Origin: a virus | IMG/VR virus record: IMGVR_UViG_3300030061_003170 | Reading direction: 5' to 3' (one strand) | DNA: 64,000 nucleotides | Part shown: positions 11,391-64,000 of the stretch, piece by piece | Layout of the letters: the number at the start of each line of letters is the position of its first letter | Numbering within the stretch: the stretch's first letter is position 1 | Translations under genes and position numbers: made by a program | Notes under the pieces: generated by a model | Database searches by the model: none | Seen by the model: only the letters and a program-made list of their open reading frames with translations | Told to the model about the DNA's origin: nothing

Positions 11391-11399
11391 TTAATCCTT

Positions 11400-14263: not shown

Positions 14264-14266
14264 TTT

Positions 14267-14638: not shown

Positions 14639-14654
14639 TTTTAGTCTCCATAAA

Positions 14655-14688: not shown

Positions 14689-14695
14689 TTCAAGT

Positions 14696-28481: not shown

Positions 28482-29437
28482 ACCTCCACATCAGTAACTC
28501 TTGTTCCATAAATGTCAAAATCAATGGCCTCTCTATCTGGACAGTCAAGTTCCGTGTCAATAAATATGTCTTTTGACTTTAAGTTCTCAAGTCCGTCGCA
28601 GATGTCTCTTTCGGGTATCTGATTATCTGTCAAGAAATTAAAATAGTGCTCAACATAATCAGGGGAAGGATCAACTAAAGTTGGTACTGGGTCTATCATT
28701 AGGTCATTAACAATGCTTTTTTGTTCTGGTAAGAACTTAAGTGGCCTAAGAGTCTCATTACCAGAAACATCGTCATACAAAAAAACTTCTACCTCAAGGC
28801 CATCTTTAAATCTAAACCCATTTAGTTCAAGTAATTCAACAAGTATTTGTTCGTCGTCAATTTTTATATATGTATTGTCAGGCTTAATATCGCTAACCGA
28901 TTTATTCAGGCTTGACAAACGACCTCTTACTTTTGGATCATTTGCTGTGTTGCCAAGGCTCATCGTGTACTCTAAGTCACAATTAATTTGCGTAATGTGC
29001 TTTTCGTAGTATGACCCAGTTAATGTAGTGTGTACGCTGCCTGTTATTTTTCCTTGAATAAAAGATGTTTTAAACCTTGGAGGCTCATCTTTTGCCGCAT
29101 CGGAAGTCCCCAAAGGTTCAGTTAAAAAATGGACCCTCTGTTGCGTACTAGGTCTTCTAATTTTTTTAACTGATAAATAGTTTTCTGACTGTGTTATAGT
29201 TCCAGCAGGTGAATCAATGTCTCTTTGTGGTCTTAAGCGCGGTGTTTCTTCGATAATTCTTTTTCTGATGGCAGTATTGTCCTCGGTAAATCCACCAGCG
29301 GCAGCATCATAAAGAATATCATCATCAAAGAATGCATAGTAAGCAGGCTTCAGTCTCCCAAGAGAAAGAAGGTGGCGACCGTATGGAGTTAGTTCAATCG
29401 AAATAACATCTTGCTTTTTGTCAAAAAATGTTGTCAA
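28472..29437 (-). CDS. Virion structural protein
   Basis: 321 aa; N-terminus FFDKKQDVISIELTPYGRHLLSLG...FFDDDILYD resembles that of 22558..23508. Confidence 0.7.
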   Translation of the reverse strand: MTTFFDKKQDVISIELTPYGRHLLSLGRLKPAYYAFFDDDILYDAAAGGFTEDNTAIRKRIIEETPRLRPQRDIDSPAGTITQSENYLSVKKIRRPSTQQRVHFLTEPLGTSDAAKDEPPRFKTSFIQGKITGSVHTTLTGSYYEKHITQINCDLEYTMSLGNTANDPKVRGRLSSLNKSVSDIKPDNTYIKIDDEQILVELLELNGFRFKDGLEVEVFLYDDVSGNETLRPLKFLPEQKSIVNDLMIDPVPTLVDPSPDYVEHYFNFLTDNQIPERDICDGLENLKSKDIFIDTELDCPDREAIDFDIYGTRVTDVEVCD

Positions 29438-47100: not shown

Positions 47101-50100
47101 AACTAAAGAAGTCATTAATTAGTCCTTTCTTTTGTTCACGGCTCTCTGGTGTTTCAAGTAATATAGCGCTTTTATTTACAGAACAAGTTGGATCAGCACG
47201 AGACAACAAATCATCGATTGCCTGCTCCATTAATCCCTGTGGTCCCTGTTGCATGATTTTTGCAACATCACCTAGGTCGTCTAGTACTCTTTCGTTCGCC
47301 TTGTCAATCATGTCTCTGGCTGTTTCTTCGTCTAAACCATTTGCAGTTAGCAGCCCCTCTCTATCTCTGTTAAATTGATCCAATTCTTCCTGAGTCAAAC
47401 AAATTGATTCATATATTGGCCCATCAGGCGCCCTGTTTACTTCTTCTAGCAGTTCTTGCAACAGTTCTGGTGGGCAATATGAACCACAATTGACATAAAC
47501 TCTCTCTACGTCTTGAGGAGTACCCATGACTCCACCATATTCTGGACAAAATGTATTTACTGCCTCTGCTATTCTAGCAGATACATGCGGCTCTCCTTGG
47601 CCAGCCATTAATTGCACATTTTCTTTTCGAGACGTGACTGAATTAAGTGTTCTAAAAAGACAATTAATATCTCCCCCGAACCCTCCAAGATTACCAAAAA
47701 CTCCATTCTTAGCCGCTGCCAGATCATCTTCGTCTCCATCTGGGCACCAGGCATCTCTAAGTGCATTATCAAAACCATCCCCTGAAAAGTCACCCTCTGC
47801 CACAAATTGACCGAGAGCATTAAGGCCATCACAAATTCCTTGCTCAATTGTTTGTAGTAATTTAAACATTAAACTAACCAAAACTTTTGTAATTGTTTGT
47901 GAAAATGATGCTATGAATATATTGGCCAGTTTTGTTAGCAGCGCAGTGTCAAAAAAGTTTGGAACTGTTGGGATTTTAGGCATCCTCAGTCCATTTTGTA
48001 AATCCCCACACACATCTAGTGTTAGAGTGCTAAGAAAACTATCAATTGGAGGTTCTGATGGACTCTGTGCGGCACATTTTACGCTGGCTAATAACCTGGG
48101 CAATAACTCACCTACAAGCGGCACCCTATCAAGAGTCTGAAGTAGTACATCAATCTGCAGAGAGTCCATCATATAGTCAATATAAGCAGAAGTAATTGTC
48201 TTTTGAAGAGACCCAAGTGCATTACCATAAGTCCCAGGAGGGGTGTTTTCTTTTGCTTTTGACTCCCTATTGGCAGCATCCGCTAATGTTTTCTTTTCCT
48301 CTTCCGGTAGATCCCTCCAGATTTCCAAATCAGATTTTTTTGCGTTAGGATCAGATGTCTCCTTTGATAATTTTGATATTTGTGCTTCTAAGTCTGTGGT
48401 ACGTGCCAAAAGTTGTTCGTATACCAACTGTTCACCAGCAAGAACTTTGTTCTCAGATTCCAATTGTTTCATAAGGCCTGCGATAGTTCCTTCTTGCCAT
48501 GGATTATATTCTTGAGCATTGACTTCCGCAATTTCTCCTGAGATCTTATTGACTCTTTTTAATTGATCACCAACTCTGTTCAATTGTGCGGCCTGATCTT
48601 TGATTGATTGATCTAATTCTGCTTTAAATTGCACTAATTTTTTGTTATCGTCTTGACCCGCTAACGCTTGCTTAATAAACCCATCTTTGTATTTTTGATA
48701 AGGGTTTGAGTTTGACATTGAGCCAGGATCATATCCTGCTTCCCATGGTAGTGGTAGATTGCCAAAATCTTTTTCATATTGCTGACGGATCTTAATCTGA
48801 TCTTCTGGTGGTAGGTTTTCAATGAAAAAACCAATAACATCAATATCCATGGACTCAAGCGCCACACGAACAATTTTAGACATTGCATTTTGGTAAGAAG
48901 TCCCTGAGAAAAGACAGCGCATTGCTGCCATACCAACACTATTGATGTTACATAAAGTCAACATTTTAATGACGTGATCACTTTGAGAACCTTTGGGTTC
49001 GTCCTTAAGAGACTTAAGTGCTGAACTGTTAGGATTTGTGCTCATTGATCTTAATGTATCTGGTGGGATTAAAGACTTTAAAAAGGAATCTTGGGCGAAA
49101 AATTTATCAAATTGCGCCTGATATACTTGTTGATTAGCAGCATTAATAGCATCTTCATTTTCTAAGAACTTTGGCTTTGACCCGGGCCTAGAACATGACA
49201 CATTGTTGAACTCAAATTCTAATGCTTTCATTAAATTGACTGAATCATTTAAGATAGTGTCTCTCAACTCAATAGCATATTGGTTCGCGTTGTTTACTAT
49301 GCAACTACCAACGTCTTGCTCAAGATTGTCTTTGCTAAGGCGACCGTAAACAACAGATATCTGTGGGTATGTGTATGCTACTAAAAAATCTAACCATGGA
49401 TAGGACTGTGATGCACGCAATGACATGTCTATCTTCTTTAAATTAGCAACATAGTGCATTGTGGTGGGTCGATTGTCACACCAACTTTTGAAATTATCAA
49501 ACCCGTCGGTTAATTTGCTATACCCGCAACCATTAACTTCTACCTTCACCGCCTTAAGTTTGTAAATCTCTCCTTCTAAAAATTCTAGTTTAACTTTCCT
49601 TACAAGGTTGCCTATACCAGAAAAGAAACTATTGACTTCATAACCATTATCTCTTATAATCTGCACAATTTTATCTTTAAATTGATCAATTTTGACCTTT
49701 TCTTCAGATGCATAATAATCAACAGGCTGAATGTCCTCTGCGCTAAGCGCCTCTACGTCTTGAGTATCAGAAAATATTAGATAACCATCTTGGTTTCTCC
49801 AAAACAATGATTGGTATGTACTATAGATACCCAAACTAGTAGACAGCCTAGTCAGTTGAGGAGACAAATCCTCGGATAAAAACTCAACTGAATTATTGGC
49901 ATTAAGTTTACTTACTGTATCGGATCCACCAGGAAGTTGTATTCTAGGCTTGCTTGGCACTTGATCAAAGATAAATGCAGGGACAGTAACTTTTACTTTA
50001 AGATAGTTTCCTATTGGATCAATATCAAAATCTTTTATTACGGCATATAGTTCTAAAGCGTAAGGGTTTGTAATCTCAGGATACTCTCCTGTTGCAAACT

Positions 50101-50701
50101 TGGTGGCATCAAACACTTCAAAGGAGTCGCCCTCTTCAGTTGTTCTATTTTCTCCTGCATAAATTGAGTTGGTTGCCTCTGCTATTATTTGATCAATAGG
50201 TGGGCATGAATTTCTCTGAGACAATGGAATATCTTCCAGGCTTCTCTCGTCAAAAACATCAGTCCCACCAGATTCGATATGCCTCGTATAGGCCAAAGTA
50301 TAGTCACTTTGAAGTTCTAGTAACTCATCCGGGGCCAACCCTTCAAGTTTAAGTCCAGGAAATGAAGCGCAAATTATTGCATCAGCCTCAAGTTTCCCAA
50401 AATGCCGCAACATTAAACGCAATGCCGGCTCGATATATTGTCTCAAAGCCACCTCACGGCCTTGAGGAGGGCTTCTAAAATCAGCAGCAGTAAGATATTC
50501 CCCGTATCTATCAAGACTAACTACACAAGTATATTCACAAGTCCCTTCGTTTAGATATGGACGATTAACCATACCAGTCCAGTCAGGCTCAATATAGTTG
50601 GGGTTTACAATACAGGTTGGGCATATTTTTTTTATCGGTGGTGGTGGTGTAATATCATCACAAACGTCTTTTTGAAATTTTGAGAAATCTTTTTCGGCCA
50701 T
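44165..50701 (-). CDS. Giant hypothetical virion-associated protein
   Basis: 2178 aa, acidic, helical with a central coiled coil and scattered Cys; lies between the spike and gp25 genes. Confidence 0.7.
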   Translation of the reverse strand: MAEKDFSKFQKDVCDDITPPPPIKKICPTCIVNPNYIEPDWTGMVNRPYLNEGTCEYTCVVSLDRYGEYLTAADFRSPPQGREVALRQYIEPALRLMLRHFGKLEADAIICASFPGLKLEGLAPDELLELQSDYTLAYTRHIESGGTDVFDERSLEDIPLSQRNSCPPIDQIIAEATNSIYAGENRTTEEGDSFEVFDATKFATGEYPEITNPYALELYAVIKDFDIDPIGNYLKVKVTVPAFIFDQVPSKPRIQLPGGSDTVSKLNANNSVEFLSEDLSPQLTRLSTSLGIYSTYQSLFWRNQDGYLIFSDTQDVEALSAEDIQPVDYYASEEKVKIDQFKDKIVQIIRDNGYEVNSFFSGIGNLVRKVKLEFLEGEIYKLKAVKVEVNGCGYSKLTDGFDNFKSWCDNRPTTMHYVANLKKIDMSLRASQSYPWLDFLVAYTYPQISVVYGRLSKDNLEQDVGSCIVNNANQYAIELRDTILNDSVNLMKALEFEFNNVSCSRPGSKPKFLENEDAINAANQQVYQAQFDKFFAQDSFLKSLIPPDTLRSMSTNPNSSALKSLKDEPKGSQSDHVIKMLTLCNINSVGMAAMRCLFSGTSYQNAMSKIVRVALESMDIDVIGFFIENLPPEDQIKIRQQYEKDFGNLPLPWEAGYDPGSMSNSNPYQKYKDGFIKQALAGQDDNKKLVQFKAELDQSIKDQAAQLNRVGDQLKRVNKISGEIAEVNAQEYNPWQEGTIAGLMKQLESENKVLAGEQLVYEQLLARTTDLEAQISKLSKETSDPNAKKSDLEIWRDLPEEEKKTLADAANRESKAKENTPPGTYGNALGSLQKTITSAYIDYMMDSLQIDVLLQTLDRVPLVGELLPRLLASVKCAAQSPSEPPIDSFLSTLTLDVCGDLQNGLRMPKIPTVPNFFDTALLTKLANIFIASFSQTITKVLVSLMFKLLQTIEQGICDGLNALGQFVAEGDFSGDGFDNALRDAWCPDGDEDDLAAAKNGVFGNLGGFGGDINCLFRTLNSVTSRKENVQLMAGQGEPHVSARIAEAVNTFCPEYGGVMGTPQDVERVYVNCGSYCPPELLQELLEEVNRAPDGPIYESICLTQEELDQFNRDREGLLTANGLDEETARDMIDKANERVLDDLGDVAKIMQQGPQGLMEQAIDDLLSRADPTCSVNKSAILLETPESREQKKGLINDFFSLLERRFFDDLIGEYHSVLASILTDTADNSLKLHELFVGLPIFIPNYVNSEADWEFRKEYGSIWYANDFRMPDIENASGMFPATVGIHMRKQIQMSMFSFLNTDGEVKISGNFTNDANGEGPDYEMEMSITRKGGIDNKFNINIKEIFYSFRPGQDLDEAFSNDPVIERDRIKYSKPFAYDDSFLEGIQFPVAGRTKGYVKVFENLLKRGLNRPVEINSIESRKVYEAINSEMFTFVRDAMLNDPDGGTPIGYKFGYDASQAIEFRDLIYVDPDANPNDEGTWSYTFDEEDRKLGKSATENPRVHFLDPDIHGGSYRRPKIYIEPATYNGWMGMMRTFVPEISSCDENTTNFLDLAQITNRVKEIEDNLPFDERLSLPPECRVEIPFDRQFSPINHGLMDGVVTSTVRVYATEFILKTLPVFSSVEMSDRNIDDIFSDVLIEAMKDGMVDQFNLFNVIQGYTYWLLFLEQSVQSVERMILDGMLEMTPALVEAKEQIDQAKEQFASLGQDFFQACDDIARGSAIIAYGEDWEEVLNDSMKMDWGDVAGLWRAAAGIPLSPFRLGLANSINTIWKARDAAKVFLREIVKREITQLSEKLYFNMRPRPHVYDISKYLLSKNGMMRGSTLRAGESKIEAPVTGGKSGIGYGSIFDVPRNILEENVFDNALLTPDELEELNEKGVFYLERYIRTTDKDGLEQVYNIKELQELLSDRAVYDENSKLSDYFGNLELISDDRILVGSLGVQFGVRLMYCPPSAFSYDLNDLDAETNRAFSHKPAMIQLATETSQRPWQLTARTVPIAVFEQDVLDKKIKDINFEDENMGEDLKCYIDNLVQTEEYQVLVDYCFPLKTYVSSIGVYSFYNFFESIGKDPSERIDSGIGLGGIAPDLWKSFIFNESKSTCRKLFNSVYRSDDDEPEENRVSSEDLKRKFFENILPQLYINLDSSISWWQRRRIVKENPFDADGKDCKNAFQKLFDKKG

Positions 50702-54550: not shown

Positions 54551-54756
54551 TCATCTCCTGTAAGGATTGTCGGTGTCGCCTTGGCTTGAGGAACTTTCAC
54601 GGTTGGTGGATTAACGATTACAAGTTCCCCTGCATCATCTACCTGTACCTTGAATCCTCGAAGGACCGGTGTGATGTCCGATTGCTCCATAAGAGATTTT
54701 TGAAGGGCCATCATAATTGCTCCGACGGCTTGGTTTGATAATTTATGATCTTTCAT
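54547..54756 (-). CDS. Hypothetical protein
   Basis: 69 aa; SD AGGAG; overlaps both neighbours. Confidence 0.65.
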   Translation of the reverse strand: MKDHKLSNQAVGAIMMALQKSLMEQSDITPVLRGFKVQVDDAGELVIVNPPTVKVPQAKATPTILTGDE

Positions 54757-55357
54757 TTTTTTGCTCCTTAAAATTTAAAATAAAATCAATATCTTTCCTG
54801 TACATTTTTAAAACCATACGTGAAAGTTCTTTGTTGTTTCTTAGATACTGTGATATTGTGGATTTTGCAACACCAGAGTTTTTGTTATAATGACTAGAAT
54901 TAATAATAGAAAATTCATTCTCTAGAAGTAAATTGGTCTCTTCTATTTTATAGACCTTATCTATTACAATGTTATTGTCTAAGTCTGTCATATAAAACAT
55001 TTGTGGTTCAATATGTGCATCAAAAAAACCATAATCATGCACCTCTTCTATGAAAGAGTAAAATCTTTTTGGCTCACCATGTATCTTAAAAAATTTTTTT
55101 TTCCTAGTCTCTACGCCATCGCCAAGCGCTCTCTTGTTTATCTCAATATATGCACTGCAAAATCTTTCGAAAGGATCCCTAACAACACATATCGTTTTAT
55201 AGTTTTCTAATATTGTTGGGTCATCCAAAAAGTTTGAAACTCTATAGTCAGGGTTTAATCTTCTAATTGTTGTGCTGCTGTTTTTAGGTATAGGCACGAA
55301 ACATATGCCTTTGTCTTCATAAATATAAGAAAGACCCTTGGCATGGTTATAGGCCAT
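54743..55357 (-). CDS. Carbohydrate sulfotransferase (Sulfotransfer_2 family)
   Basis: 5'-PSB FVPIPKNSSTT, 3'-PB VVRDPFERFCSAY, DAHIEPQ. Confidence 0.8.
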   Translation of the reverse strand: MAYNHAKGLSYIYEDKGICFVPIPKNSSTTIRRLNPDYRVSNFLDDPTILENYKTICVVRDPFERFCSAYIEINKRALGDGVETRKKKFFKIHGEPKRFYSFIEEVHDYGFFDAHIEPQMFYMTDLDNNIVIDKVYKIEETNLLLENEFSIINSSHYNKNSGVAKSTISQYLRNNKELSRMVLKMYRKDIDFILNFKEQKNERS

Positions 55358-56204
55358 TTTTTATCTCCTGTACATAGTCAAACAACTGACGTTTGGGTTG
55401 CCAATCTAATTCCTTTATCGACTCTGAGATGTCTGCTAGGGTATTTCTTGCCTCTCCTGGTCTCGCTGGTAGATGTTTCTTTTCGCCACCAAACATGTCT
55501 GCCAGTTCATTTATCGAATAGTTCCTTCCTGTCCCAAGATTATAAACTTTACATTCCCTGTCTTTTTTTGAAATAGCGATTAGGCCGGAACATATGTCAT
55601 AAACGTGTGTAAAGTCCCTTCTTTGCATGCCATCCCCGACTATTGTCAGGGGGCTTTTGTTCTTCATCTGTTCTTCAAAGATTGCCACGACAGGTGTGTA
55701 TTGTCCAATTCTAGGGTTTCTTGGTCCGTAAACATTAAAAAACCTTGCAATCCCACTCTTGATTCCATAAACTTTTGTGTACATTTTAATAGTTTCTTCC
55801 CCCTGCCATTTTGCAAAAGCATATGGGTTAAGATAAACCCCTCCATAAAACGAACTGGATCCTGCATAAACCACCATGCAGTTATTTTTTCTAGCGTATT
55901 CACAAACAACAGCAGTACCATAAGAATTGTTTTCACAAGTATATAAAGGATCATCAAAAGATGGCTGTATTCTTGCTTCTGCTGCGATATGAAAAATTAC
56001 CTCTACACCCTCAAGACCTATTGATGGGGTGGACAAATATTTCTTAAAATCATCAAATATATATTTTGCAGATGGGTTGCAATTTTCTTTTTTGCCATAA
56101 GATAAATCGTCAATGACAATTACTTCATATGATTGCTCTATCAAAAGATCTACCAAATTACTGCCGACAAAACCACAGCCACCTGTTACTATAACTTTCT
56201 TCAT
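55347..56204 (-). CDS. NAD-dependent nucleotide-sugar epimerase/dehydratase
   Basis: VTGGCGFVGS, YAFAK (YxxxK), RFFNVYGP, GDGMQRRDFTHV. Confidence 0.9.
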   Translation of the reverse strand: MKKVIVTGGCGFVGSNLVDLLIEQSYEVIVIDDLSYGKKENCNPSAKYIFDDFKKYLSTPSIGLEGVEVIFHIAAEARIQPSFDDPLYTCENNSYGTAVVCEYARKNNCMVVYAGSSSFYGGVYLNPYAFAKWQGEETIKMYTKVYGIKSGIARFFNVYGPRNPRIGQYTPVVAIFEEQMKNKSPLTIVGDGMQRRDFTHVYDICSGLIAISKKDRECKVYNLGTGRNYSINELADMFGGEKKHLPARPGEARNTLADISESIKELDWQPKRQLFDYVQEIKNGL

Positions 56205-56220
56205 ACAAACCCCAAAACTA

Positions 56221-57198
56221 TTACAAATTATTCTCTTTTTTGATCTTTTCTAGATCTGCAAAATACATTGCCTCCGCTAGTCCTCGCAGTTCGTATTTAG
56301 GTTCCCAGCCCAACTCAAGTTTTGCTTTTGAAGGATCTCCTAGCAGTAATGGAACCTCATGTGGCCTAAATAACTTTGGATCTATTTCAACGTAGTCTTC
56401 AACTGATAAGTCGGCTATTTCAAAGACTTGATGCAGAAACTGTTTTACTGTATATGTTTTTCCCGTTGCCACAACATAATCACCTGGTGTATCTTTCTGT
56501 AGCATTAGCCACATTGCATTTACGTAATCTTCAGCATGACCCCAATCTCTTTTTGCATCTAGGTTTCCTAGGTATAACTTGTCTTGTAATCCTAGTTTTA
56601 TTCTTGCTGCTGCAATTGTTATCTTTCTGGTTACAAATGTTTCTCCTCTTCTAGGAGATTCATGGTTAAACAATATCCCACAAGAAATAAACATACCATA
56701 ACTTTTTCTGTAGTTATTACACAAATTGTGCGCAAATACTTTTGCACAAGCATATGGGCTGGCTGGCATTAGAGCAGTCTTTTCACTCTGTGGGTGTTCT
56801 GGGTTGTCACCAAACATTTCAGAAGATGATGCTTGATAAAATTTTATCGTTGGGTCAGTGTGCCTAATTGCCTCTAATATCCTCAAAGTTCCCATTGCAA
56901 TCGTAGCAACAGTTTCCTCTGGGGTCTCAAAGGAGACTTTCACGTGCGACTGGGCTGCTAGATTATAAAACTCATCAGGCTTATATTGCTGCAGTAATGA
57001 ATAGAGCACCCCGGAGTCATGAAGACTATAATATCTTAATATAAAATTCGGATTACTCATCAGATGATCAATTCTATCAGTACATATCAAAGAAGTTCTT
57101 CTCTTAAGGCCTACAACTCGATACCCCATTCCCAATAACATTTCGGACAAATAAGATCCATCCTGACCAGTAACTCCCGTTATAATTGCTGTCTTCAT
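56221..57198 (-). CDS. gmd: GDP-mannose 4,6-dehydratase
   Basis: ITGVTGQDGSYL, NLAAQSHVKVSF, FYQASSSEMFG, ILFNHESPRRGETFVTRKI, LGNLDAKRDWGHA. Confidence 0.96.
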   Translation of the reverse strand: MKTAIITGVTGQDGSYLSEMLLGMGYRVVGLKRRTSLICTDRIDHLMSNPNFILRYYSLHDSGVLYSLLQQYKPDEFYNLAAQSHVKVSFETPEETVATIAMGTLRILEAIRHTDPTIKFYQASSSEMFGDNPEHPQSEKTALMPASPYACAKVFAHNLCNNYRKSYGMFISCGILFNHESPRRGETFVTRKITIAAARIKLGLQDKLYLGNLDAKRDWGHAEDYVNAMWLMLQKDTPGDYVVATGKTYTVKQFLHQVFEIADLSVEDYVEIDPKLFRPHEVPLLLGDPSKAKLELGWEPKYELRGLAEAMYFADLEKIKKENNL

Positions 57199-58355
57199 AC
57201 ACTCTCCCTAACTATATCAACCACCAGGTTGACCTCTTCCTCTGATAACTTATCATGGTTGGGTATATACAGGCCATTTTTGTCAACAACACTAGAGTTC
57301 TTTAAATTATTTTTCCCATAATTCTTGACATAAAAGGGCTGATTTCCCATAGAACCACAAATCAATGGTCGAACCTCTACATTATTTTTAATTAAATTTT
57401 CAACTATCTGAGTTCTGTTTTCATGAATTATAGGATATGCAAAGTTTGAAATATAATTTGTATCCTCAGAAATTATTGGAGATATATCACTAAACTTCTC
57501 ATTGTATATTTTGAAATTCCTGTTCCTGATTTTTGAGATCTGGTCTAGTTTGTCAATTTGGCCCAGGCCAATATAGGCTTGTAAATCAGTAGATCTTAAA
57601 TTAAACCCAGAATAATAAAAAGTATATAAAGAATCAAATTCGCTAGTGTTCCACTCTGTCAGATGGCGTTCTCGAAACGATTTACTCGAGTCTCTCGTCC
57701 AGCCGTGGCTCCTAATTGCCTTTAGGACTTCATATAACTCTTCATCATCTGTGCTGACAAAACCGCCTTCAATCGTAGAAATATGATGACCAAAGTAAGT
57801 GGAAAAACTAGACATCAGGCCAAAGGTGCCTAATTTCTTATCTCTAAACTTAGAACCCATGCTCTCGCAAGTGTCTTCTAGAAGAATTACGTTATTTTCA
57901 TCACATATATCCTTCAAAGATTGCATGTCGGGGACCAAGCCTAAGACTGAAACCAGTAACAAGACATGGGGTTGATCTTCTCTAATTATTTGCTTTAAAT
58001 GATCTATATCAACAGACAAGTCTTTCATGTTACAATCACAAATAATCGGCTCAAAGCCAAGTTGTATAACTGGTGATAAATCTGTCGCCCAGGAAATCGC
58101 TGGTACTATGATTTTTGCATTCCTAGGTATTCTACCGGCCTCATACAGTGCCCACAACATCAGTAAATTTGCTGAAGATCCTGAGTTACAAAAAACAGTA
58201 TTGTTAACTCCTAACCAATTAGACCACTTATTTTCCAACTGAATTGTTACTGGGCCTTTTGTAAGTCTTGGCGGGACATCGGTTGATAGCCACGCCACTA
58301 ATCTCTCTATATCTTCTTTTGAGATTGTGTCGTCAACTAGTGTAATTTTTTTCAT
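57195..58355 (-). CDS. colD: PLP/PMP-dependent GDP-4-keto-6-deoxymannose 3-dehydratase (ColD/E1-like, DegT fold)
   Basis: NSGSSANLL, EDTCESMG; SFSTYFGHHISTIEGG has His where DegT aminotransferases have the Schiff-base Lys. Confidence 0.8.
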   Translation of the reverse strand: MKKITLVDDTISKEDIERLVAWLSTDVPPRLTKGPVTIQLENKWSNWLGVNNTVFCNSGSSANLLMLWALYEAGRIPRNAKIIVPAISWATDLSPVIQLGFEPIICDCNMKDLSVDIDHLKQIIREDQPHVLLLVSVLGLVPDMQSLKDICDENNVILLEDTCESMGSKFRDKKLGTFGLMSSFSTYFGHHISTIEGGFVSTDDEELYEVLKAIRSHGWTRDSSKSFRERHLTEWNTSEFDSLYTFYYSGFNLRSTDLQAYIGLGQIDKLDQISKIRNRNFKIYNEKFSDISPIISEDTNYISNFAYPIIHENRTQIVENLIKNNVEVRPLICGSMGNQPFYVKNYGKNNLKNSSVVDKNGLYIPNHDKLSEEEVNLVVDIVRESV

Positions 58356-58382
58356 TTAAACTCCAAAAAAAGACTTTTATAT

Positions 58383-58411
58383 ATTATAACCCGTTTTCAC
58401 AAGTTAGTCAA
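58383..58411 (-). promoter_or_regulatory. sigma70-type promoter upstream of the colD-like gene
   Basis: TTGACT-17 nt-TATAAT; SD GGAG before ATG 58355. Confidence 0.65.
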
Positions 58412-59315
58412 GTGTTTTTATGTATGAATTGTAAGTTTTTTTAACCCCCTCGCTAAAACTTGTGAATTCAAAGTCTCCAATGAGTTTTTTTAACTGATCA
58501 TTGCTGCCGTCTTTTCTAAACTGACCGTCTAGCATACCATTGAATCTAAAATCAACCTCTTTGTCTATATTTTTCTCTAATATTCTACACATTTCAGATA
58601 TTGATAAATTTTCATTTGGGGCTACAATAATAGGGATTCTAGTGTTATGTTTTTCTAGCAGCATAGGTATTATTCTGCACAAATCATCAACATACAACTG
58701 TTGCCTTAAAGGTCTCCCAGTTCCCCAGAAGGTCAATGTCTCTCCTGTTTTGCAGACTGCTACTTTATGGATCAAAGAGGCTACAAAATGCGAGGACATT
58801 GTTCCAAAATAATCACCAATACCGTATATGTTGGATGGACTAAAAGTTGAATAATTTAAGCCATATTGCTCTCTATATGAAATTGACTGAACATGTAACG
58901 CTCTTTTCGTATATCCATATGAAAAGTTTGTTTCGGCGGGTGGGCCTAAAAACAAATCAGACTCAGAAAAAGGGTAAGACATACCTTCGTCTGGGAAGGC
59001 ACAGGTGCTAAGTGATGATAAAACTCTTTTCACGCCACATAAATGAGCCGCATGTAAAAGATTGGTGTTTATAACGGTATTTTCATAAAAAAATTCTGCC
59101 TGGTTTTCTTTATTGTCTTTTATTCCACCAACTCTAGCAGCCAAATGCACTATTGCATTAGGCTTGGTCTGTTCTAAATAATTAATTGTGGAATCTATAC
59201 TTAGTAGATTACAATCTTTTGAAGAACAATAGTTCCAATCTGGTCTGAAATGTTTTAAACGTTTGCCAACAAAACCAGAACCTCCAGTTACTAGAACACT
59301 ATTATACTTGCTCAT
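58404..59315 (-). CDS. fcl: GDP-L-fucose/colitose synthase (Fcl/ColC-like epimerase-reductase)
   Basis: LVTGGSGFVG, HLAARVGGI, LSTCAFP, YGYTKR, WGTGRPLRQ. Confidence 0.88.
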   Translation of the reverse strand: MSKYNSVLVTGGSGFVGKRLKHFRPDWNYCSSKDCNLLSIDSTINYLEQTKPNAIVHLAARVGGIKDNKENQAEFFYENTVINTNLLHAAHLCGVKRVLSSLSTCAFPDEGMSYPFSESDLFLGPPAETNFSYGYTKRALHVQSISYREQYGLNYSTFSPSNIYGIGDYFGTMSSHFVASLIHKVAVCKTGETLTFWGTGRPLRQQLYVDDLCRIIPMLLEKHNTRIPIIVAPNENLSISEMCRILEKNIDKEVDFRFNGMLDGQFRKDGSNDQLKKLIGDFEFTSFSEGVKKTYNSYIKTLD

Positions 59316-59893
59316 TTCGCCCTCAAAGGAGAATCTACCATTCTAATTTTTTCGTCTCTAATTGAAGGGCATCGATTACCAGTTCTATGGATCAGATCGT
59401 AAAAAATCATCATAATTGAGACCTCAACAGTATGAAAATACTTACATTTTATTGATAGTTCGTCAATGTTGTCTTGTAAGTTTTCAGAAGTTTCACCGCT
59501 AATTAGAAATGTTCCCATGCCACGATTATCTGCCCAGTGTAGGGCATTAATAACATTGGAAGAATTACCAGAGCAAGATAGGCCTATAACCAAGCAGTCT
59601 TCTGGGTTTTCGATTGTCGCTATGCTTTCCAACCATCTAATGAAAAGTTGCTCAAATCCATGGTCATTTGCATTTGAGGTAATGAACCCCACACTATCAA
59701 ACGAGTACACGGATTTATCTGGTATTAGCCTAGACATATCAGTTGACATATGACATGCCACAAAATGAAGACCACCATTTCCAACCAAGTAAATCTTCTT
59801 GGCTCCATTTACTTTATCAATTAATTTTTGATACTCTTCTGAAGAAGAAGCCTGGTTACACTTTTCTTGTATATTTTCAAAATCTATCAACAT
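59312..59893 (-). CDS. SIS-domain sugar-phosphate isomerase (GmhA-like, divergent)
   Basis: Likely start ATG 59893 (SD GGAGG); IYLVGNGG, NANDHGFEQLF, GLSCSGNSSNVINA. Confidence 0.8.
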   Translation of the reverse strand: MLIDFENIQEKCNQASSSEEYQKLIDKVNGAKKIYLVGNGGLHFVACHMSTDMSRLIPDKSVYSFDSVGFITSNANDHGFEQLFIRWLESIATIENPEDCLVIGLSCSGNSSNVINALHWADNRGMGTFLISGETSENLQDNIDELSIKCKYFHTVEVSIMMIFYDLIHRTGNRCPSIRDEKIRMVDSPLRAK

Positions 59894-61065
59894 TATAAAC
59901 CTCCACATGTTTTGTTAATAATAGATATAAATTGTTCTATTTCATCGTAAGAAATTGCCAAATTTGGTCTCAACCTAACCGATTTTTCACCAGTCTTGTT
60001 GCAAATCAATCCATTTTGATACAATTTGCTTACCAATTCATCCCTTTCCTTTGTGTTTACTAAATCAAACGCCATAATTAGCCCGGACGATCTCAAGTTT
60101 AAAAGTCTCTTTGTCTTGTTTAAGTTATTGATTAAGTATTCACTCTTTTCAGCAACCTTTTCAATGATTTCATATTTTTTGTATGCCCTCATTATATATT
60201 TGCATCTTATCATGTCTACCGCATCACCGTCCCAAGTTACTTGTAACCTAGTGATGTTACTTTTGTCAAATATTTTATTACATTTATCGTTTACCATAAT
60301 GCCAGATAATTGTGTTTTTTTGCCAAAAATTACAATGTCAGGGACTATACCAGTGTGCTCATAAAACCAAAGTTTACCGGTGCTACCGAAACCTACTTGT
60401 ATTTCATCAAACACTAAAGGAACATCGTATTTATCACAAAGGCGCCTCAATCCTGTAAAGAAAATAATGTCTTGATGTATATCTCCTGCGCTACACTGTA
60501 TTGGTTCTACTAAAACACAAGTTACAAAATTTTTATGCAAATAAGACTCAATCTCTCTCAAATCACAATTTAGTTTTGTTGAAAAAGTTTCTGGGAGACC
60601 GTCTAATTTATTACTGGCAGGCCAGAAATGATCAGTCACAAAAGAACCAAAACTGTTTATCCCATGAAAACTATTTCTAAAAGATACTATGTTTGGCTTT
60701 TTATAGCCAGATCGATGTATGCAAGTCTTTATTGCGGCTTCAACTGCCAATGCACCCGTACAAGTATAGTGATAGTTATCGTAAATACCATTACCTGTAA
60801 ACTGTCTAAACTCTTTATCGAAACCTAAAGTTTCATTAGAAACAAACTCGCAATTATTTATCTTAAATGTAGAGGCTGCTAAAATCTCATCCCTGAATTC
60901 TTCAGAAAGAAAAATATCATGGTTATAACCTAGTGGAAGAGATGCATACATTCCAAAAAAATCTAAATATCTTCTCTCCGTATTATTGTCATAAAGATAA
61001 GACCCTTTTGATTTAGAGAAGTTAACGTTAATATTGAATTTACTGTTTCTGGCTAAACTTATCAT
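59893..61065 (-). CDS. Class III PLP aminotransferase (L-lysine 6-transaminase-like)
   Basis: YLDFFGMYASLPLGYNH, GALAVEAAIK, EPIQ, FDEIQVGFG, FGKKTQ. Confidence 0.88.
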   Translation of the reverse strand: MISLARNSKFNINVNFSKSKGSYLYDNNTERRYLDFFGMYASLPLGYNHDIFLSEEFRDEILAASTFKINNCEFVSNETLGFDKEFRQFTGNGIYDNYHYTCTGALAVEAAIKTCIHRSGYKKPNIVSFRNSFHGINSFGSFVTDHFWPASNKLDGLPETFSTKLNCDLREIESYLHKNFVTCVLVEPIQCSAGDIHQDIIFFTGLRRLCDKYDVPLVFDEIQVGFGSTGKLWFYEHTGIVPDIVIFGKKTQLSGIMVNDKCNKIFDKSNITRLQVTWDGDAVDMIRCKYIMRAYKKYEIIEKVAEKSEYLINNLNKTKRLLNLRSSGLIMAFDLVNTKERDELVSKLYQNGLICNKTGEKSVRLRPNLAISYDEIEQFISIINKTCGGL

Positions 61066-62117
61066 ACTCTATCCCCAATAAAATATTCTAATATTAGATT
61101 TTGCAATTCGCTCTTGTTTTGCACTTGATGAACGAATAGATCTCCAAAATCAGATGCCAATATACAAACAATTGTTTTTTCTATATTTTTCTTATCCTTC
61201 GACAAATACTCCATGTATTCATCAATCTCATCTTTTGTTATCAAAAACTCTGGTATATTTTTAAACAGGATTTGATTCATAAATTTATATCTCTCAAAAG
61301 ATAAAAAACCTAGTTTCCAAGAAACATAGTTGGCCAAATCCATCCCTAGAGTCACTGCTTGGCCATGAGGGATGCTGTAGTTGCTAAGAGTCTCAATTGC
61401 ATGACCAAAAGTGTGGCCATAATTAAAGACCCTCCTTAGGTTCGTATCAAACTCATCTATTTCAATTAATTTTTTCTTTATTGACAGACTTTCTCTAACA
61501 TACGGCATCAAAGAAGATCGGTCTGTGAAAAGACTTTCGTATTCTTCTTTGATTTTTAACGCCATAGAGTTGCCATCATAAATGTAGTAATGAAGCATCT
61601 CTCCAATGCCTGATTTAATCTCAGAGTCACTTAGTGTTTTCAGGAACTTTGTGCAGCAAATAATTTCTCTTGGTGGATAAAAAGTCCCGATAGAATTCTT
61701 GACATTTAAAAAGTTAATTGATGTCTTGCTTCCTATGCAACTGTCCGATTGAGATAACAATGTGGTGGGGTAAAAGACCCACTCTATACCTCTATACAAG
61801 ACAGATGAAATAAATCCTGTTATGTCCTGTATAATTCCTCCGCCAACGGCGATTAGTTTATGGTTTTTCTTCACACCCTTGTTAATTAAAAGACCAATTA
61901 AGTCTTGACAAAAAGGCAATGATTTATTGTCCTCTGTGGCTTCTATAATGATGACTTTTTCTGTCTTGAAGCCTGATGTGAGATGCGGGTACAACTCGTT
62001 AACAGTAGAATCAATTAGAACATAAGAGTCATCTGCCCATCGGTTTAAATTTACTTCTGAGTCGTAAAAATTAACTTCGTATTCTCTTCTATATGAGGAA
62101 ATTTTCATATTATACAT
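61062..62117 (-). CDS. AroB/DHQS-superfamily sugar-phosphate cyclase
   Basis: GGGIIQDITGF, PTTLLSQSDSCIGSKT, KNSIGTFYPP, NYGHTFGHAIE, HGQAV, DKK; atypical EMLHY. Confidence 0.88.
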   Translation of the reverse strand: MYNMKISSYRREYEVNFYDSEVNLNRWADDSYVLIDSTVNELYPHLTSGFKTEKVIIIEATEDNKSLPFCQDLIGLLINKGVKKNHKLIAVGGGIIQDITGFISSVLYRGIEWVFYPTTLLSQSDSCIGSKTSINFLNVKNSIGTFYPPREIICCTKFLKTLSDSEIKSGIGEMLHYYIYDGNSMALKIKEEYESLFTDRSSLMPYVRESLSIKKKLIEIDEFDTNLRRVFNYGHTFGHAIETLSNYSIPHGQAVTLGMDLANYVSWKLGFLSFERYKFMNQILFKNIPEFLITKDEIDEYMEYLSKDKKNIEKTIVCILASDFGDLFVHQVQNKSELQNLILEYFIGDRV

Positions 62118-62835
62118 TTGTAAATCCCCCGTCCACTACGATGTTTTGCCCAGAAATATAATTATTTTGATTACTAGCCATAAACATAACCACTTTTGAA
62201 ATATCACTTGGTGTTGCCATCCGGCCAATTGGTATGGTTTTTGCAATTTTAACCATCTCTGTTTCACCCAGAACTTCTCTTGTTAGATCAGTTAATGTAA
62301 AGCCAGGAGACACCGTGTTAACAAGGACATCATATTTTGCCAACTCTGCGGCTGCTGAAAGCGATAGGCCTACAAGGCCAAATTTACTAGAGGAATATGA
62401 TGCTCTATATTCCTTGCTTATTGTACCCCAAATAGATGAAATGTTTACTATTCTTCCATAGTTATGTCTCTTCATTGTATTTGAGATTGTTTTTATTATT
62501 CTGAATGGTGTTGTCAAATTTACTTTAATTATGGCATCCCAGTCTTCTTGTTGTACATCACCAATTGATGCAATCTTATTGATACCTGCATTGTTAATAC
62601 ACACATCAATCTTTTTATTTGAGAGGAAACTAATAAAGTTATCTACTGATTGTGAATCTAAAAAATCAACAGGGTATTTTTCAAAACCATCATTTAGTTG
62701 ATTTAAAGAAAGATCACTGGTGCCTGTTGCTATAATGTTTGCACCAGCGTGAAACATATCCTCGGCAATTTGCCTACCTATTCCTCTGGTGGCCCCTGTT
62801 ACCAAGACTGTCTGATTTTTAAAATCAATTTTCAT
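62110..62835 (-). CDS. SDR-family oxidoreductase
   Basis: TGATRGIG, NNAGI, YSSSK (YxxxK), VSPG, VVDGG. Confidence 0.9.
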   Translation of the reverse strand: MKIDFKNQTVLVTGATRGIGRQIAEDMFHAGANIIATGTSDLSLNQLNDGFEKYPVDFLDSQSVDNFISFLSNKKIDVCINNAGINKIASIGDVQQEDWDAIIKVNLTTPFRIIKTISNTMKRHNYGRIVNISSIWGTISKEYRASYSSSKFGLVGLSLSAAAELAKYDVLVNTVSPGFTLTDLTREVLGETEMVKIAKTIPIGRMATPSDISKVVMFMASNQNNYISGQNIVVDGGFTNV

Positions 62836-63968
62836 TATGAACTGTCTCCATCTGGGTAGACATGAGCAACATCTTCTCTACTAACTGCTAATCTAATCGC
62901 CGGCTTGTTACCTACCGCCTGAATTCTATGTGGGATACCTTTTCCAATAAAAACTATGTCATCTTTTTTAATTTTCTTAATAACACCGTCAATCTCCCAC
63001 TCCCACTCGCCATCAATAATATACCACCATTCATTCCAACTGGGGTGGTAGTGTCGTCGATTACCCTCACCGGGTTGTTGATGAATAATTGTTGCACTGT
63101 TGTTCTCGGTATTTACTACTCGGTGGCTCCAACTCTTGGAGTCATCATTCGCGGCCCGAATAGAATTGATGTTTACAATCTCTTTATTACATTCATGCAA
63201 GTTATTGTACATAACGCCGTCTTTTGCTAGGATAGAGGGGACATCAACCTCAGAATGTTCGGCTCCATAGAATTGTGGCTTGAACGAGTCGTTCTTAGAT
63301 AGATGTCTAGAAACAACTTCTGCCAGTTGGAAATCTTCTTCATTGTCTATATCAATGGTTGAATACCCCTTGAGTTCAAAAAAGCCTTTCTTGCCTAGCC
63401 CACCGTGGTAAGCGGCAGAGTACTCATTCATGTTGGAAACATAATTTTCAGATCTCCAGCCCATTAAAGAACAAGCGTAAGGATGAACTGGTGTTACTTC
63501 TTGCGAAGGAGGGCTTATCTTTGTGGGATCAAAATTAATCGGATCATTATTATAAACACATTCTATTTGCTGACTTGATACGGATATTAGTGTATCAAGT
63601 TTGTTGTCAACAATTTCATTAACAAAACACCTTATCTCCTCAGGGGTGATGAAAGGAGAAGTGGGTAAAATTTGAATTACTATGTCGCATGCTACGTTTT
63701 CTAAAAACTCAAGCATAAATTCATCATTGGTGGCTGCATCAGAAGCCATGTAGGGTGATCTCTTAAAAAATTTTACACCTGATATCTCAGCGATCTCTTT
63801 AAGAATTTCTGATTCTGAGTTTACATAAATGGCATCAAAACAACCAGAATCTTTGGCAGCATCTATAACATACTGTATCAAAGGCTTGTTGTTCAGTAAT
63901 CTTATGTTTTTCTTAGGCACTCTTTTACTACCTAATCTTGCGGGGATCATTGCTACAATATTATTCAT
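62835..63968 (-). CDS. Acylneuraminate-type cytidylyltransferase (NeuA/CMAS-like) fused to a C-terminal cupin
   Basis: IPARLGSKRVPKKNI, PTSPF, DIDNEEDF; cupin motifs HYHPSWNEWWYIIDG...GIPHRI. Confidence 0.85.
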   Translation of the reverse strand: MNNIVAMIPARLGSKRVPKKNIRLLNNKPLIQYVIDAAKDSGCFDAIYVNSESEILKEIAEISGVKFFKRSPYMASDAATNDEFMLEFLENVACDIVIQILPTSPFITPEEIRCFVNEIVDNKLDTLISVSSQQIECVYNNDPINFDPTKISPPSQEVTPVHPYACSLMGWRSENYVSNMNEYSAAYHGGLGKKGFFELKGYSTIDIDNEEDFQLAEVVSRHLSKNDSFKPQFYGAEHSEVDVPSILAKDGVMYNNLHECNKEIVNINSIRAANDDSKSWSHRVVNTENNSATIIHQQPGEGNRRHYHPSWNEWWYIIDGEWEWEIDGVIKKIKKDDIVFIGKGIPHRIQAVGNKPAIRLAVSREDVAHVYPDGDSS

Positions 63969-64000
63969 TTTTCTTCCAAGTTAAAGTTTTTAATCAAATA
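63965..64000 (-). CDS. 3' end of an upstream gene (partial)
   Basis: ...YLIKNFNLEEK* ends in TGA overlapping the ATG of the cytidylyltransferase, so the operon continues beyond the window. Confidence 0.5.
   Translation of the reverse strand, partial: YLIKNFNLEEK

Follow-up and report, generated by a model that had tools for sequence, protein, structure and literature searches.

A phage glycan-island cassette that pairs an AroB-related enzyme with a short-chain dehydrogenase: a candidate route to a CMP-activated amino ulosonic acid

In a large uncultured T4-like phage, we found a cassette of five overlapping genes whose candidate product is a CMP-activated 3-deoxy-2-ulosonic acid with an amino substituent and a backbone of seven or eight carbons, smaller than but akin to Kdo and the sialic acids. 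An AroB-like enzyme and a short-chain dehydrogenase/reductase (SDR) would jointly remove the phosphate by elimination. We put this reading forward tentatively, at a little under an even chance. The cassette is probably one of the donor-sugar modules in a phage glycan island, its product would be a new CMP-activated amino sugar acid, and it does not resemble the aminocyclitol pathways of antibiotics.

The window, i.e. the whole stretch of 64,000 nucleotides that was analysed, belongs to a 107,260-bp virus record of IMG/VR which is ~47% complete according to CheckV, and its phage origin is confirmed by the portal, large terminase and baseplate wedge genes that the window contains. All five genes lie on the minus strand and encode a cytidylyltransferase-cupin fusion (62835-63968), a classical SDR resembling FabG-type ketoreductases (62110-62835; 168.8 bits), an AroB-related NAD/metal enzyme of the TIGR04425 clade with N- and C-terminal DHQ_synthase domains (61062-62117), a class III (omega-type) PLP aminotransferase (59893-61065; Aminotran_3, 212.4 bits) and a divergent GmhA-like SIS sugar-phosphate isomerase (59312-59908). 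From one gene to the next, the overlaps are 1, 8, 4 and 16 nt, and the SIS gene shares 4 nt with the gene that follows it. The open reading frame list and the profile matches agree with the first-pass annotation of this DNA, which had described five co-oriented, overlapping genes with these domains and had made its proposal depend on their co-occurrence elsewhere; all five indeed co-occur in many IMG/VR and metagenome phage contigs. The gene set is common to many phages and bacteria, and the neighbourhood survey that had been suggested identified the cassette as a conserved unit in other phage and bacterial genomes. The glycan island extends past what had been described and comprises 17 genes, those of the cassette included, with five further sugar genes downstream and seven further genes upstream, past the window end, where a search for glycosyltransferases had been advised. 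Six of these seven are glycosyltransferase-like, including a GT29-like (sialyltransferase-like) gene of 277 aa (G000:C1:11731-12564, equal to L001:11731-12564:+; Pfam Glyco_transf_29, 28.7 bits against a gathering score of 23), the 3' end of which lies at 63965-64000 on the minus strand and overlaps the start of the cytidylyltransferase gene by 4 nt. The absence of other shikimate genes, noted earlier for the window, holds across the whole 107,260-bp record, in which, at ~47% completeness, no dehydroquinase I or II, shikimate dehydrogenase, DAHP synthase/KdsA, NeuB or HpcH aldolase was found. No characterised phage counterpart of the cassette was found among GenBank phages or in the literature searched, nor any paper devoted to it.

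The AroB-like enzyme is probably a repurposed relative of dehydroquinate synthase (DHQS). It scores 426.8 bits with TIGR04425, above the family cutoff of 400, and 273.3 bits with the aroB equivalog TIGR01357, below the trusted cutoff of 305. It thus belongs to TIGR04425, a bioinformatic placeholder family that is named 'AroB-related putative sugar phosphate phospholyase (cyclizing)', has the status of hypothetical equivalog, and for which no biochemical paper was found in the literature searched. In a quick tree with few references, the 43 family rows including the phage enzyme form one clade (SH-aLRT 98), apart from the five AroB references and sister to canonical AroB, not to the sedoheptulose-7-P (S7P) cyclases. 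Both results sustain the earlier opinion that this is not a housekeeping AroB. Its identity to true AroB proteins is 29-33%, and the nearest solved structures are bacterial DHQS, all of them true DHQS.

The active site was compared residue by residue. Attention had been drawn to EMLHY and HGQAV as departures from the usual DHQS motifs, and both are present (GEMLH at residue 172, HGQAV at residue 251), but HGQAV is not a family signature, since the residue concerned varies within the family. At R120, D136, K142, N152, E184, K226, R240, N244, H247, H251, H264 and K323 (E. coli numbering), the phage enzyme and the 42 relatives sampled are identical to five canonical AroB proteins, and the sole active-site change in the phage enzyme is K187H (E. 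coli numbering), which corresponds to phage H176 within EMLHY. The metal ligands and the residues binding the phosphate and carboxylate of DAHP are accordingly those of the five AroB references, K187 excepted. Two annotated (not characterised) S7P cyclases carry M, E/A, D, P and A/L at K226, R240, N244, H251 and K323, and two annotated (not characterised) DOIS have G/A at R240, E at N244 and N at K323, the phage enzyme having R and N at the first two of these. A DHQS-type pocket throughout the clade argues for a carboxylate-bearing, DAHP-like substrate, most likely a 3-deoxy-2-ulosonate phosphate and not S7P or G6P.

The SDR, with its glycine motif (GATRGIG), NAG motif and Y147xxxK intact, is the obligate partner of the AroB-like enzyme: in ~150 of 165 related loci its gene lies immediately upstream of the cyclase gene, overlapping or abutting it. 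TIGR04425 loci are glycan loci with SIS and CTP_transf_3 genes as frequent partners, and among the loci examined the clade was never seen in a shikimate context. In the phage loci and those of context type B, the cytidylyltransferase gene stands on one side of the pair and the aminotransferase or SIS genes on the other, and the reading frames overlap. Four variant cassettes (L105, L118, L124 and L127) have a DegT aminotransferase in place of the SDR beside the cyclase, as would suit a keto product open to reduction or to amination. The distant context type C lacks a CTP_transf_3 gene; here the neighbours of the pair are acetolactate-synthase-like TPP enzymes, NeuB or weak HpcH-like genes, NDP-sugar dehydratases and DegT. 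As TPP enzymes of this kind act on 2-keto acids, the context fits a product in which the 2-keto acid is retained.

Residues ~1-220 of the fusion protein match CTP_transf_3 (NeuA/KdsB/PseF type) with 85.6 bits against a Pfam gathering score of 22.6, which makes the CMP activation that had been proposed earlier plausible; we propose that a sugar acid would be activated. The specific equivalogs are not reached (PseF 94.7 against a cutoff of 205.7; KdsB models at most 60 against 155-281), and the nearest solved structures are NeuA enzymes. The C-terminal metal-type cupin domain (residues ~285-365; Cupin_2, 53 bits) is closest in structure to Mn oxalate-decarboxylase-like cupins, and its H306, H308, E313 and H347 are invariant across 18 homologues. 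Among the loci surveyed, the class III aminotransferase was found only together with cupin-fused cytidylyltransferases; its best NCBIfam model is the lysine 6-transaminase family, below cutoff, and its nearest solved structure is the lysine epsilon-aminotransferase of M. tuberculosis (183 bits). Matches of the SIS protein are weak (SIS_2 24.8 bits against a gathering score of 27; GmhA models ~61 bits, all below their cutoffs), the only solved structures that it matches are phosphoheptose isomerases, and its gene is present in 42 of 53 related cassettes. Homologues of the GT29-like gene lie directly upstream of the cytidylyltransferase-cupin gene in 35 of the 53 non-identical phage cassettes, and MptE/Maf-like transferases are linked in many related loci. 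True KdsA is encoded in five sister cassettes (L105, L124, L189, L190 and L236), of which L105 combines SIS, KdsA and two cytidylyltransferases without a phosphatase, while L196 and L197 carry a DAHP-synthase I-beta-like gene beside the aminotransferase (258 bits, versus 95 for KdsA).

The 53 non-identical phage loci with an orthologous cytidylyltransferase-cupin also revealed an exchange of genes. The cyclase is present in 32 of them, 30 of which have the SDR as well and none a HAD protein, and nine cyclase-less loci encode a small protein of 126-134 aa with the HAD motifs DFDGVIH, SAKA, K and YIDDK. In four of these nine (L221, L224, L213 and L199), the HAD protein is encoded exactly between the cytidylyltransferase-cupin and the aminotransferase. 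The best matches of its fold model (pLDDT 84) are weak and mostly HAD phosphatases, including GmhB, KdsC, T4 Pnkp and phage AfhF. At least five changes between the cyclase state and the HAD state can be counted on the cytidylyltransferase-cupin tree, though these are few events, and among related phages. The HAD-type locus L224 encodes a transferase, cytidylyltransferase, aminotransferase and SIS protein that are 56-63% identical to those of the window, as near as those of cyclase-type relatives. We infer that the HAD phosphatase and the cyclase plus SDR fill the same role in the same slot, and such repeated swapping is more in keeping with phosphate removal on the way to a CMP-ulosonic acid than with an aminocyclitol pathway. 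Alternatively, the HAD protein, which is fused to SIS in L182, L220 and L226, could serve the GmhA-like SIS protein as a GmhB-like partner, and the idea of a same role would then be weakened.

The sequences themselves show the gene content, the placement in families, the fingerprint of the active site, the conserved pairing with an SDR and the exchange with a HAD phosphatase; from these we infer a route, including its substrate, order of steps, non-cyclised product, site of amination and acceptor. The route would start from a DAHP-like ulosonate omega-phosphate, supplied by the host or by a phage synthase encoded outside the sequenced ~47% of the genome, with the SIS protein supplying or adjusting the sugar-phosphate precursor. 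The AroB-like enzyme would bind the ulosonate phosphate as dehydroquinate synthase binds DAHP and would remove the phosphate through NAD+-dependent oxidation and beta-elimination, after which the SDR would reduce the ketone left by the elimination to give a deoxy (or deoxy-keto) sugar acid; the two enzymes would take the place of the HAD phosphatase of sister cassettes. An amino group would be added by the class III aminotransferase, which is always accompanied by the cupin, the NeuA-like domain would add CMP, and the GT29-like neighbour, or in relatives a Maf-like transferase, would transfer the finished sugar. Several points speak against this route. The SDR and the aminotransferase cannot share one ketone, so that a carbonyl must be formed in at least one more step, for which the cupin may be responsible. 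From the unchanged pocket, a C7, DAHP-like substrate would be expected, yet several of the sister cassettes carry KdsA, which makes a C8 acid. An acid synthase or aldolase is absent from the record (~47% complete), and the SIS protein has no explained role if host DAHP is the substrate. Finally, in established DHQS chemistry, loss of phosphate from DAHP leaves an enol-pyranose that readily cyclises, and a DAHP-binding homologue is therefore expected to yield a carbocycle unless the hydride goes elsewhere.

One alternative is that the AroB-like enzyme truly cyclises, which we consider unlikely although to be taken seriously, with about half the weight of belief that we give to the ulosonic acid. 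DAHP or an epimer would be converted to 3-dehydroquinate or an analogue, and through SDR and aminotransferase to an (amino)quinate-type carbocycle, on the tertiary C1 hydroxyl of which the NeuA-like domain would form a CMP ester. The complete DHQS catalytic and binding set, the true DHQS among solved structures and the word 'cyclizing' in the name given by the NCBIfam curators suit such a reaction, a ketoreductase or aminotransferase beside the cyclase suits the 3-keto group of dehydroquinate, and quinate-type rings are, by chemical inference, near-isosteric with the pyranose form of 3-deoxy-heptulosonic acid. GT29-like and Maf-like transferases, however, require a ketosidic donor, and we know of no precedent for transfer from a saturated tertiary carbocyclic carbon. 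Moreover, orthologous cassettes that cannot yield a carbocycle have a simple HAD phosphatase in exchange for the pair, and the 2-keto-acid-type TPP enzyme of type C loci does not suit a tertiary hydroxy acid. This alternative amounts to a corrected form of the CMP-carbasugar idea of the first-pass annotation, with DAHP instead of S7P as substrate and a carba-analogue of a 3-deoxy-ulosonic acid as product.

That annotation's own scheme, in which an EEVS-, DOIS- or DDGS-like cyclase turns S7P, heptose-7-P or G6P into a cyclitol that is then aminated and CMP-activated, we regard as very improbable. The order 'isomerise a sugar phosphate, then cyclise' finds some sympathy in the GmhA-like SIS protein, as the substrate of GmhA is S7P, and in the C7N-aminocyclitol-type cluster on Bacillus bombysepticus plasmid pBb, which combines a cupin, a class III aminotransferase, a Gfo/Idh/MocA enzyme and an S7P cyclase. 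The analogy nevertheless is not supported by the residue fingerprint, since the discriminating positions replaced in S7P cyclases and DOIS (K226, R240, N244, H251 and K323) are all of DHQS type throughout the clade, nor by the sister position of that clade to AroB, and the nucleotidyltransferase of the cassette is of NeuA/KdsB type, whereas validamycin-type pathways use one of GlgC/RmlA type. Somewhat less improbable, though still doubtful, is that the SDR and AroB-like pair makes a separate small building block, either an acyl or aglycone substituent or a precursor used before acid assembly, and shares no more than a locus with the cytidylyltransferase. The modules are separable and type C loci have the pair without a CTP_transf_3 gene, but in phage and type B loci it is enclosed by the cytidylyltransferase gene and the aminotransferase or SIS genes, with overlapping frames, and the HAD swap falls at that same position. 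Least credible of all is an ordinary dehydroquinate synthase acting as an auxiliary metabolic gene that boosts host aromatic amino-acid synthesis: the full DHQS active site and the degree of identity to true AroB proteins accord with it, but the profile scores on either side of their cutoffs, the separate clade, the K187H change, the conservation, in phages and bacteria alike, of the overlapping operon that it forms with sugar-activation genes, and the lack of any further shikimate gene in the record (~47% complete) all oppose it.

Set beside known systems, the phage enzyme shares with AroB (EC 4.2.3.4, TIGR01357) the two-domain fold, the NAD- and metal-binding residues, the DAHP phosphate- and carboxylate-binding residues and very likely the NAD+-dependent oxidation and phosphate beta-elimination chemistry, but it differs in clade, in equivalog score, in having, with the rest of the phage branch, His at K187 and in its pairing with an SDR in glycan loci. 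Within TIGR04425, the phage cassette stands out by its cupin fusion, class III aminotransferase and GT29-like transferase. The Kdo pathway (KdsD isomerase, KdsA synthase, KdsC HAD phosphatase, KdsB CMP-transferase) resembles it in the SIS isomerase and the KdsB/NeuA-family CMP-transferase and, if the proposed route holds, in the 3-deoxy-ulosonate phosphate and the removal of its phosphate, and some sister phage cassettes carry a true KdsA or a HAD phosphatase. In the Kdo8N branch in Shewanella, an aminotransferase makes an amino-deoxy acid, to which the phage cassette may be likened. Unlike the Kdo pathway, the phage cassette has the AroB-like enzyme and SDR in the phosphatase slot and a SIS protein that is GmhA-like, not KdsD-like; neither KdsA nor a KdnB-type oxidase was seen in the 107,260-bp record (~47% complete). 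With the CMP-sialic, -pseudaminic and -legionaminic acid pathways (GT29, CstII and Maf transferases), it has in common a NeuA-type cytidylyltransferase beside sialyltransferase-like and Maf-like transferases and the expectation of an acidic amino-deoxy sugar, but the phage module is without a NeuB-type synthase, a UDP- or GDP-hexosamine stage and an acetyltransferase, and its backbone is probably C7 or C8 versus C9. The secondary-metabolism cyclases (EEVS/ValA, DDGS, EVS, DOIS/BtrC) belong to the same superfamily, and a cupin, a class III aminotransferase and oxidoreductases are likewise possible constituents of C7N-aminocyclitol clusters; fingerprint residues, clade and nucleotidyltransferase type differ, and the phage enzyme falls outside these groups. 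By analogy, the proposed chemistry might resemble that of NDP-hexose 4,6-dehydratases with a 4-reductase or 4-aminotransferase, in which a transient NAD+ oxidation is followed by loss of a leaving group two carbons away and by action of an SDR or DegT enzyme on the keto product, except that the phage fold is that of DHQS and not an extended SDR, that phosphate and not water would leave, and that the substrate would not be nucleotide-linked.

The five sugar genes downstream of the cassette form an adjacent second donor module of the same island (54743-59315, minus strand). Its GDP-mannose 4,6-dehydratase (56221-57198) exceeds the cutoff of Gmd TIGR01472 (435 bits against 415), and the other four genes, all likewise on the minus strand, are assigned at family level only, i.e. 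a GDP-fucose-synthase-like protein (58404-59315), a DegT aminotransferase (57195-58355), an extended SDR epimerase/reductase (55347-56204) and a sulfotransferase-like protein (54743-55357).

Between positions 59312 and 63968 of the window, on the minus strand, lie five open reading frames whose Pfam and NCBIfam matches bear out the gene set described in the first-pass annotation: a CTP_transf_3 cytidylyltransferase fused to a cupin (62835-63968), a classical SDR (62110-62835), a two-domain dehydroquinate-synthase-fold protein (61062-62117; AroB-like, hereafter the cyclase), a class III aminotransferase (59893-61065) and a GmhA-like SIS protein with a weak match (59312-59908). Consecutive frames share 1, 8, 4 and 16 nt, and the last of the five runs 4 nt into the gene that follows. 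NeuA comes closest to the cytidylyltransferase domain, and lysine epsilon-aminotransferase to the aminotransferase. For the cupin domain, in which a His-His-Glu-His set is invariant, the nearest proteins are Mn cupins, and GmhA is the sole match of the SIS protein.

The operon forms the centre of a 17-gene island bordered by phage genes: PhoH and a PD-(D/E)XK nuclease at one end, and genes for very large virion proteins at the opposite end. Downstream are GDP-fucose-synthase-like, DegT aminotransferase, GDP-mannose 4,6-dehydratase, epimerase and sulfotransferase-like genes. The glycosyltransferases that the first-pass annotation had suggested looking for past 64 kb were found upstream, beyond the window end, as GT29-like, GT10 (alpha-1,3-fucosyltransferase-like), GT11 (alpha-1,2-fucosyltransferase-like), GT2 and two GT4 genes, together with one gene lacking a family assignment. 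The GT29-like, GT10 and GT11 genes and those for the GDP-mannose dehydratase, the GDP-fucose-synthase-like protein, the DegT aminotransferase and the sulfotransferase-like protein make up an animal-like 'sialyl/fucosyl/sulfo' toolkit in a phage (L001:6053-12564, plus strand, in the sequence past the window end, and 54743-59315 of the window). Phage hallmarks in the window include a portal, a baseplate wedge and a large terminase with 47% identity to that of Flavobacterium phage immuto. The IMG/VR virus contig measures 107,260 bp at approximately 47% completeness (CheckV), and in this partial record no dehydroquinase, shikimate dehydrogenase, DAHP or Kdo8P synthase, NeuB or HpcH aldolase was found. 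Against GenBank phages, a nucleotide search with a 10 kb region gave no match, and protein searches with the cyclase and the cytidylyltransferase-cupin yielded nothing beyond contaminating AroB of host type and a single NeuA fragment from a bacterium.

The cyclase is a member of TIGR04425 ('AroB-related putative sugar phosphate phospholyase (cyclizing)'), as judged from its sequence, and belongs neither to housekeeping AroB nor to the S7P cyclases (EEVS, DDGS and EVS type) or 2-deoxy-scyllo-inosose synthases (DOIS). It scores 426.8 bits against TIGR04425 (cutoff 400) and 273 bits against the aroB equivalog (cutoff 305). Among solved structures, the closest are without exception dehydroquinate synthases from bacteria, and DOIS, EEVS and DDGS come far behind. 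For residue comparisons, the cyclase and 42 phage and bacterial relatives were aligned with five canonical AroB proteins (E. coli, B. finegoldii, S. aureus, S. meliloti and L. interrogans), two S7P cyclases and two DOIS, the latter four being annotated genes from plasmid records. Among the reference material was an apparent C7N-aminocyclitol cluster on Bacillus bombysepticus plasmid pBb (L170:3529-8840, plus strand), which encodes a cupin, an S7P cyclase, a ROK kinase, a class III aminotransferase, an acetyltransferase and a Gfo/Idh/MocA protein. A quick maximum-likelihood tree recovered the family as a single clade (SH-aLRT 98) that is sister to AroB and lies outside it. A canonical AroB acting as an auxiliary metabolic gene was therefore rejected, given the sub-cutoff equivalog score and the position of the clade outside AroB.

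Twelve positions (R120, D136, K142, N152, E184, K226, R240, N244, H247, H251, H264 and K323; E. coli AroB numbering) are identical to AroB in every family member aligned; judging by the A. nidulans structure, these positions bind the metal and the phosphate and carboxylate of DAHP, the dehydroquinate synthase substrate. In the two annotated S7P cyclases, K226, R240, N244, H251 and K323 correspond to M, E/A, D, P and A/L respectively; in the two annotated DOIS, R240 corresponds to G/A, N244 to E and K323 to N. Since the residues replaced in those enzymes stay of the AroB type in the cyclase, an EEVS- or DOIS-type aminocyclitol pathway was rejected, and with it the part of the first-pass annotation that had proposed such a cyclase; its gene set stands as real and shared with other genomes. 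A KdnB-like alcohol oxidase was likewise discarded, no KdnB-like match being present among solved structures at E <= 1e-10. Both motifs remarked on in the first-pass annotation, EMLHY and HGQAV, are present in the cyclase. HGQAV has little diagnostic meaning, as the residue following HG is variable, and EMLHY marks the sole pocket change, K187 to His, which the phage branch shares with some of the bacterial branch. Because the pocket is otherwise identical to that of AroB, the comparison argues for a DAHP-like 3-deoxy-2-ulosonate phosphate as the probable substrate.

Alignment-based scans recovered at least 598 cyclase relatives in species-representative prokaryote genomes, spread over many phyla, and 165 on IMG/VR contigs, whereas single-sequence scans of genome and viral contigs gave no matches. 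An SDR gene lies immediately upstream of the cyclase in about 150 of 165 fetched loci. Neighbour clustering and gene orders together define four context types. In type A (phage), close homologues of all five window genes occur in the same order on many contigs, with cyclases 50-65% identical, so that the co-occurrence on which the first-pass annotation had staked its reading is seen in other genomes; the order is GT29-like, cytidylyltransferase-cupin, SDR, cyclase, class III aminotransferase and SIS, frequently with Maf-like (MptE) transferases. Type B (bacterial) combines an HpcH aldolase, a plain cytidylyltransferase, Gfo/Idh/MocA, SIS, a 2-hydroxyacid dehydrogenase, SDR and cyclase, often with DUF386; culturable carriers include Joostella sp. 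CR20 (L047) and Clostridium thailandense (L073). The more distant type C has an acetolactate-synthase-like TPP enzyme, NeuB or a weak HpcH-like gene, SDR and cyclase, without a cytidylyltransferase, and in a small phage variant a DegT aminotransferase adjoins the cyclase in place of the SDR. The class III aminotransferase is confined to loci whose cytidylyltransferase bears the cupin. The phage-type cassette, with its cupin-fused cytidylyltransferase and class III aminotransferase, was also seen on a 13.9 kb contig of a MAG labelled Thaumarchaeota (L009, with a GT29-like gene in addition) and in a SAR86 single-cell assembly (L042); both contigs may derive from phages that either infect these cells or were binned along with them.

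An alignment scan with the cytidylyltransferase-cupin yielded 53 non-identical phage loci, of which 32 have the cyclase (30 of these with the SDR) and 21 lack it. A protein of 126-134 aa bearing four HAD motifs (DFDGVIH, SAKA, a conserved Lys and YIDDK) occurs in nine of the 21 cyclase-less loci and in none of the 32 others. It has no Pfam or NCBIfam match, and the best Foldseek matches of its model (pLDDT 84) are mostly HAD phosphatases (GmhB, KdsC, T4 Pnkp and phage AfhF), all with E-values above 0.001. Based on its motifs and on the prevalence of HAD phosphatases among these matches, we regard it as a putative HAD phosphatase. AfhF, a phage arabinose-1,5-diphosphate phosphatase, is of similar size. 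In four phage loci (L221:9119-9520, L224:9130-9510, L213:9125-9529 and L199:9127-9513, all on the plus strand) the HAD-motif gene sits exactly between the cytidylyltransferase-cupin and the aminotransferase, in the slot taken by SDR and cyclase in the window. On the cytidylyltransferase-cupin tree the cyclase and HAD states intermingle and change at least five times, and the remaining cassette proteins of the HAD-type locus L224 are 56-63% identical to those of the window, a closeness that cyclase-type relatives share. It therefore seems that the enzymes downstream take up what either module produces, and this fits removal of phosphate from a pathway intermediate by the cyclase module. In three further loci (L182, L220 and L226) the HAD-motif protein is fused to the SIS protein, for instance as a 325 aa fusion of a GmhA-like SIS domain and a small HAD phosphatase domain (L182:15063-16040, plus strand), which suggests that both domains act on the same sugar phosphate.

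As to that intermediate, the aminotransferase of two HAD-type loci (L196, L197) has a DAHP-synthase I-beta-like gene as its neighbour, scoring 258 bits for that family compared to 95 for KdsA. This gene (L196:5963-6823, plus strand; also in L197) places a shikimate-type synthase in a glycan context, inside a CMP-sugar cassette on a phage contig. True KdsA is found in L105, L124, L189, L190 and L236. The L105 cassette (8232-14811, plus strand) runs in the order cytidylyltransferase, DegT, cyclase, SIS, a 233 aa gene without assignment, a second cytidylyltransferase, KdsA and Maf-like; having neither SDR nor phosphatase, it reads as a putative Kdo-type pathway without phosphatase. The synthases in sister cassettes and the dehydroquinate-synthase-type pocket together suggest a seven- or eight-carbon 3-deoxy-2-ulosonate phosphate as the candidate intermediate, and the unchanged pocket would favour seven over eight.

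The leading candidate is a CMP-ulosonic acid pathway with a possibly new use of the dehydroquinate synthase fold. A DAHP-like acid phosphate, made by host or phage, would be bound as in dehydroquinate synthase and oxidised by NAD+, after which phosphate would be lost by beta-elimination. The SDR would reduce the resulting ketone to a deoxy sugar acid, the cupin and aminotransferase together would introduce an amino group, the NeuA-like domain would make the CMP donor and the GT29-like enzyme would transfer it. The first of these steps follows from the pocket; the later ones we infer. Several points sit uneasily with this pathway: it gives the SIS protein no step, the aminotransferase needs a carbonyl, and the HAD protein could be partnered with SIS in the manner of GmhB instead of being an equivalent of the cyclase. 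Its main chemical weakness is that the intermediate formed from DAHP after phosphate elimination cyclises readily, which makes a carbocyclic, dehydroquinate- or quinate-type product a serious rival. We nevertheless hold such a product to be unlikely, as the cyclase module interchanges with a plain phosphatase, the linked transferases need a ketosidic CMP donor and the type C loci have a 2-keto-acid-type TPP partner. Rather improbable, too, is a version in which the phage makes a CMP-linked amino-quinate-type 'carba-ulosonic acid', a carbocyclic mimic of a sialic/Kdo-type acid that is either transferred by an unprecedented mechanism or serves as a dead-end CMP-sugar analogue jamming host surface-glycan synthesis.

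Of known systems, the donor pathways for Kdo or sialic acid would come nearest to the way the module works; the module differs from them by an AroB-like enzyme at the phosphatase position. Our literature search found no paper on the TIGR04425 family and no characterised member, and the SugarBase preprint does not mention heptulosonic acids, octulosonic acids or AroB. If the CMP-ulosonic acid pathway holds, a dehydroquinate-synthase-fold enzyme has been recruited to nucleotide-sugar metabolism, where it takes the place of a phosphatase by eliminating phosphate with deoxygenation; deoxy or amino ulosonic acids would then arise by a new route. Proteins of the TIGR04425 clade are labelled 3-dehydroquinate synthase in databases, by which reconstructions of the shikimate pathway are misled. 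As the phage module lies beside virion genes and is accompanied by sialyl- and fucosyltransferase-like genes, it may serve to place an undescribed acidic sugar on virions or to alter the host surface with it; either would have consequences for host range, evasion of defences and the chemistry of marine glycans.

Three very large minus-strand frames (33859-40467, 2202 aa; 44165-50701, 2178 aa; 29434-33858, 1474 aa) surround the baseplate wedge gene; they probably encode proteins of the tail fibres or virion, which are candidates for receiving the glycan of the island. Elsewhere in the window, a single tRNA-Leu (anticodon TAA; 18617-18702, minus strand) adjoins a primase-like gene, and a 1051 aa SbcC-like nuclease subunit (14696-17851, minus strand) has an N-terminal metallophosphoesterase-like stretch and is possibly an SbcD-SbcC fusion.
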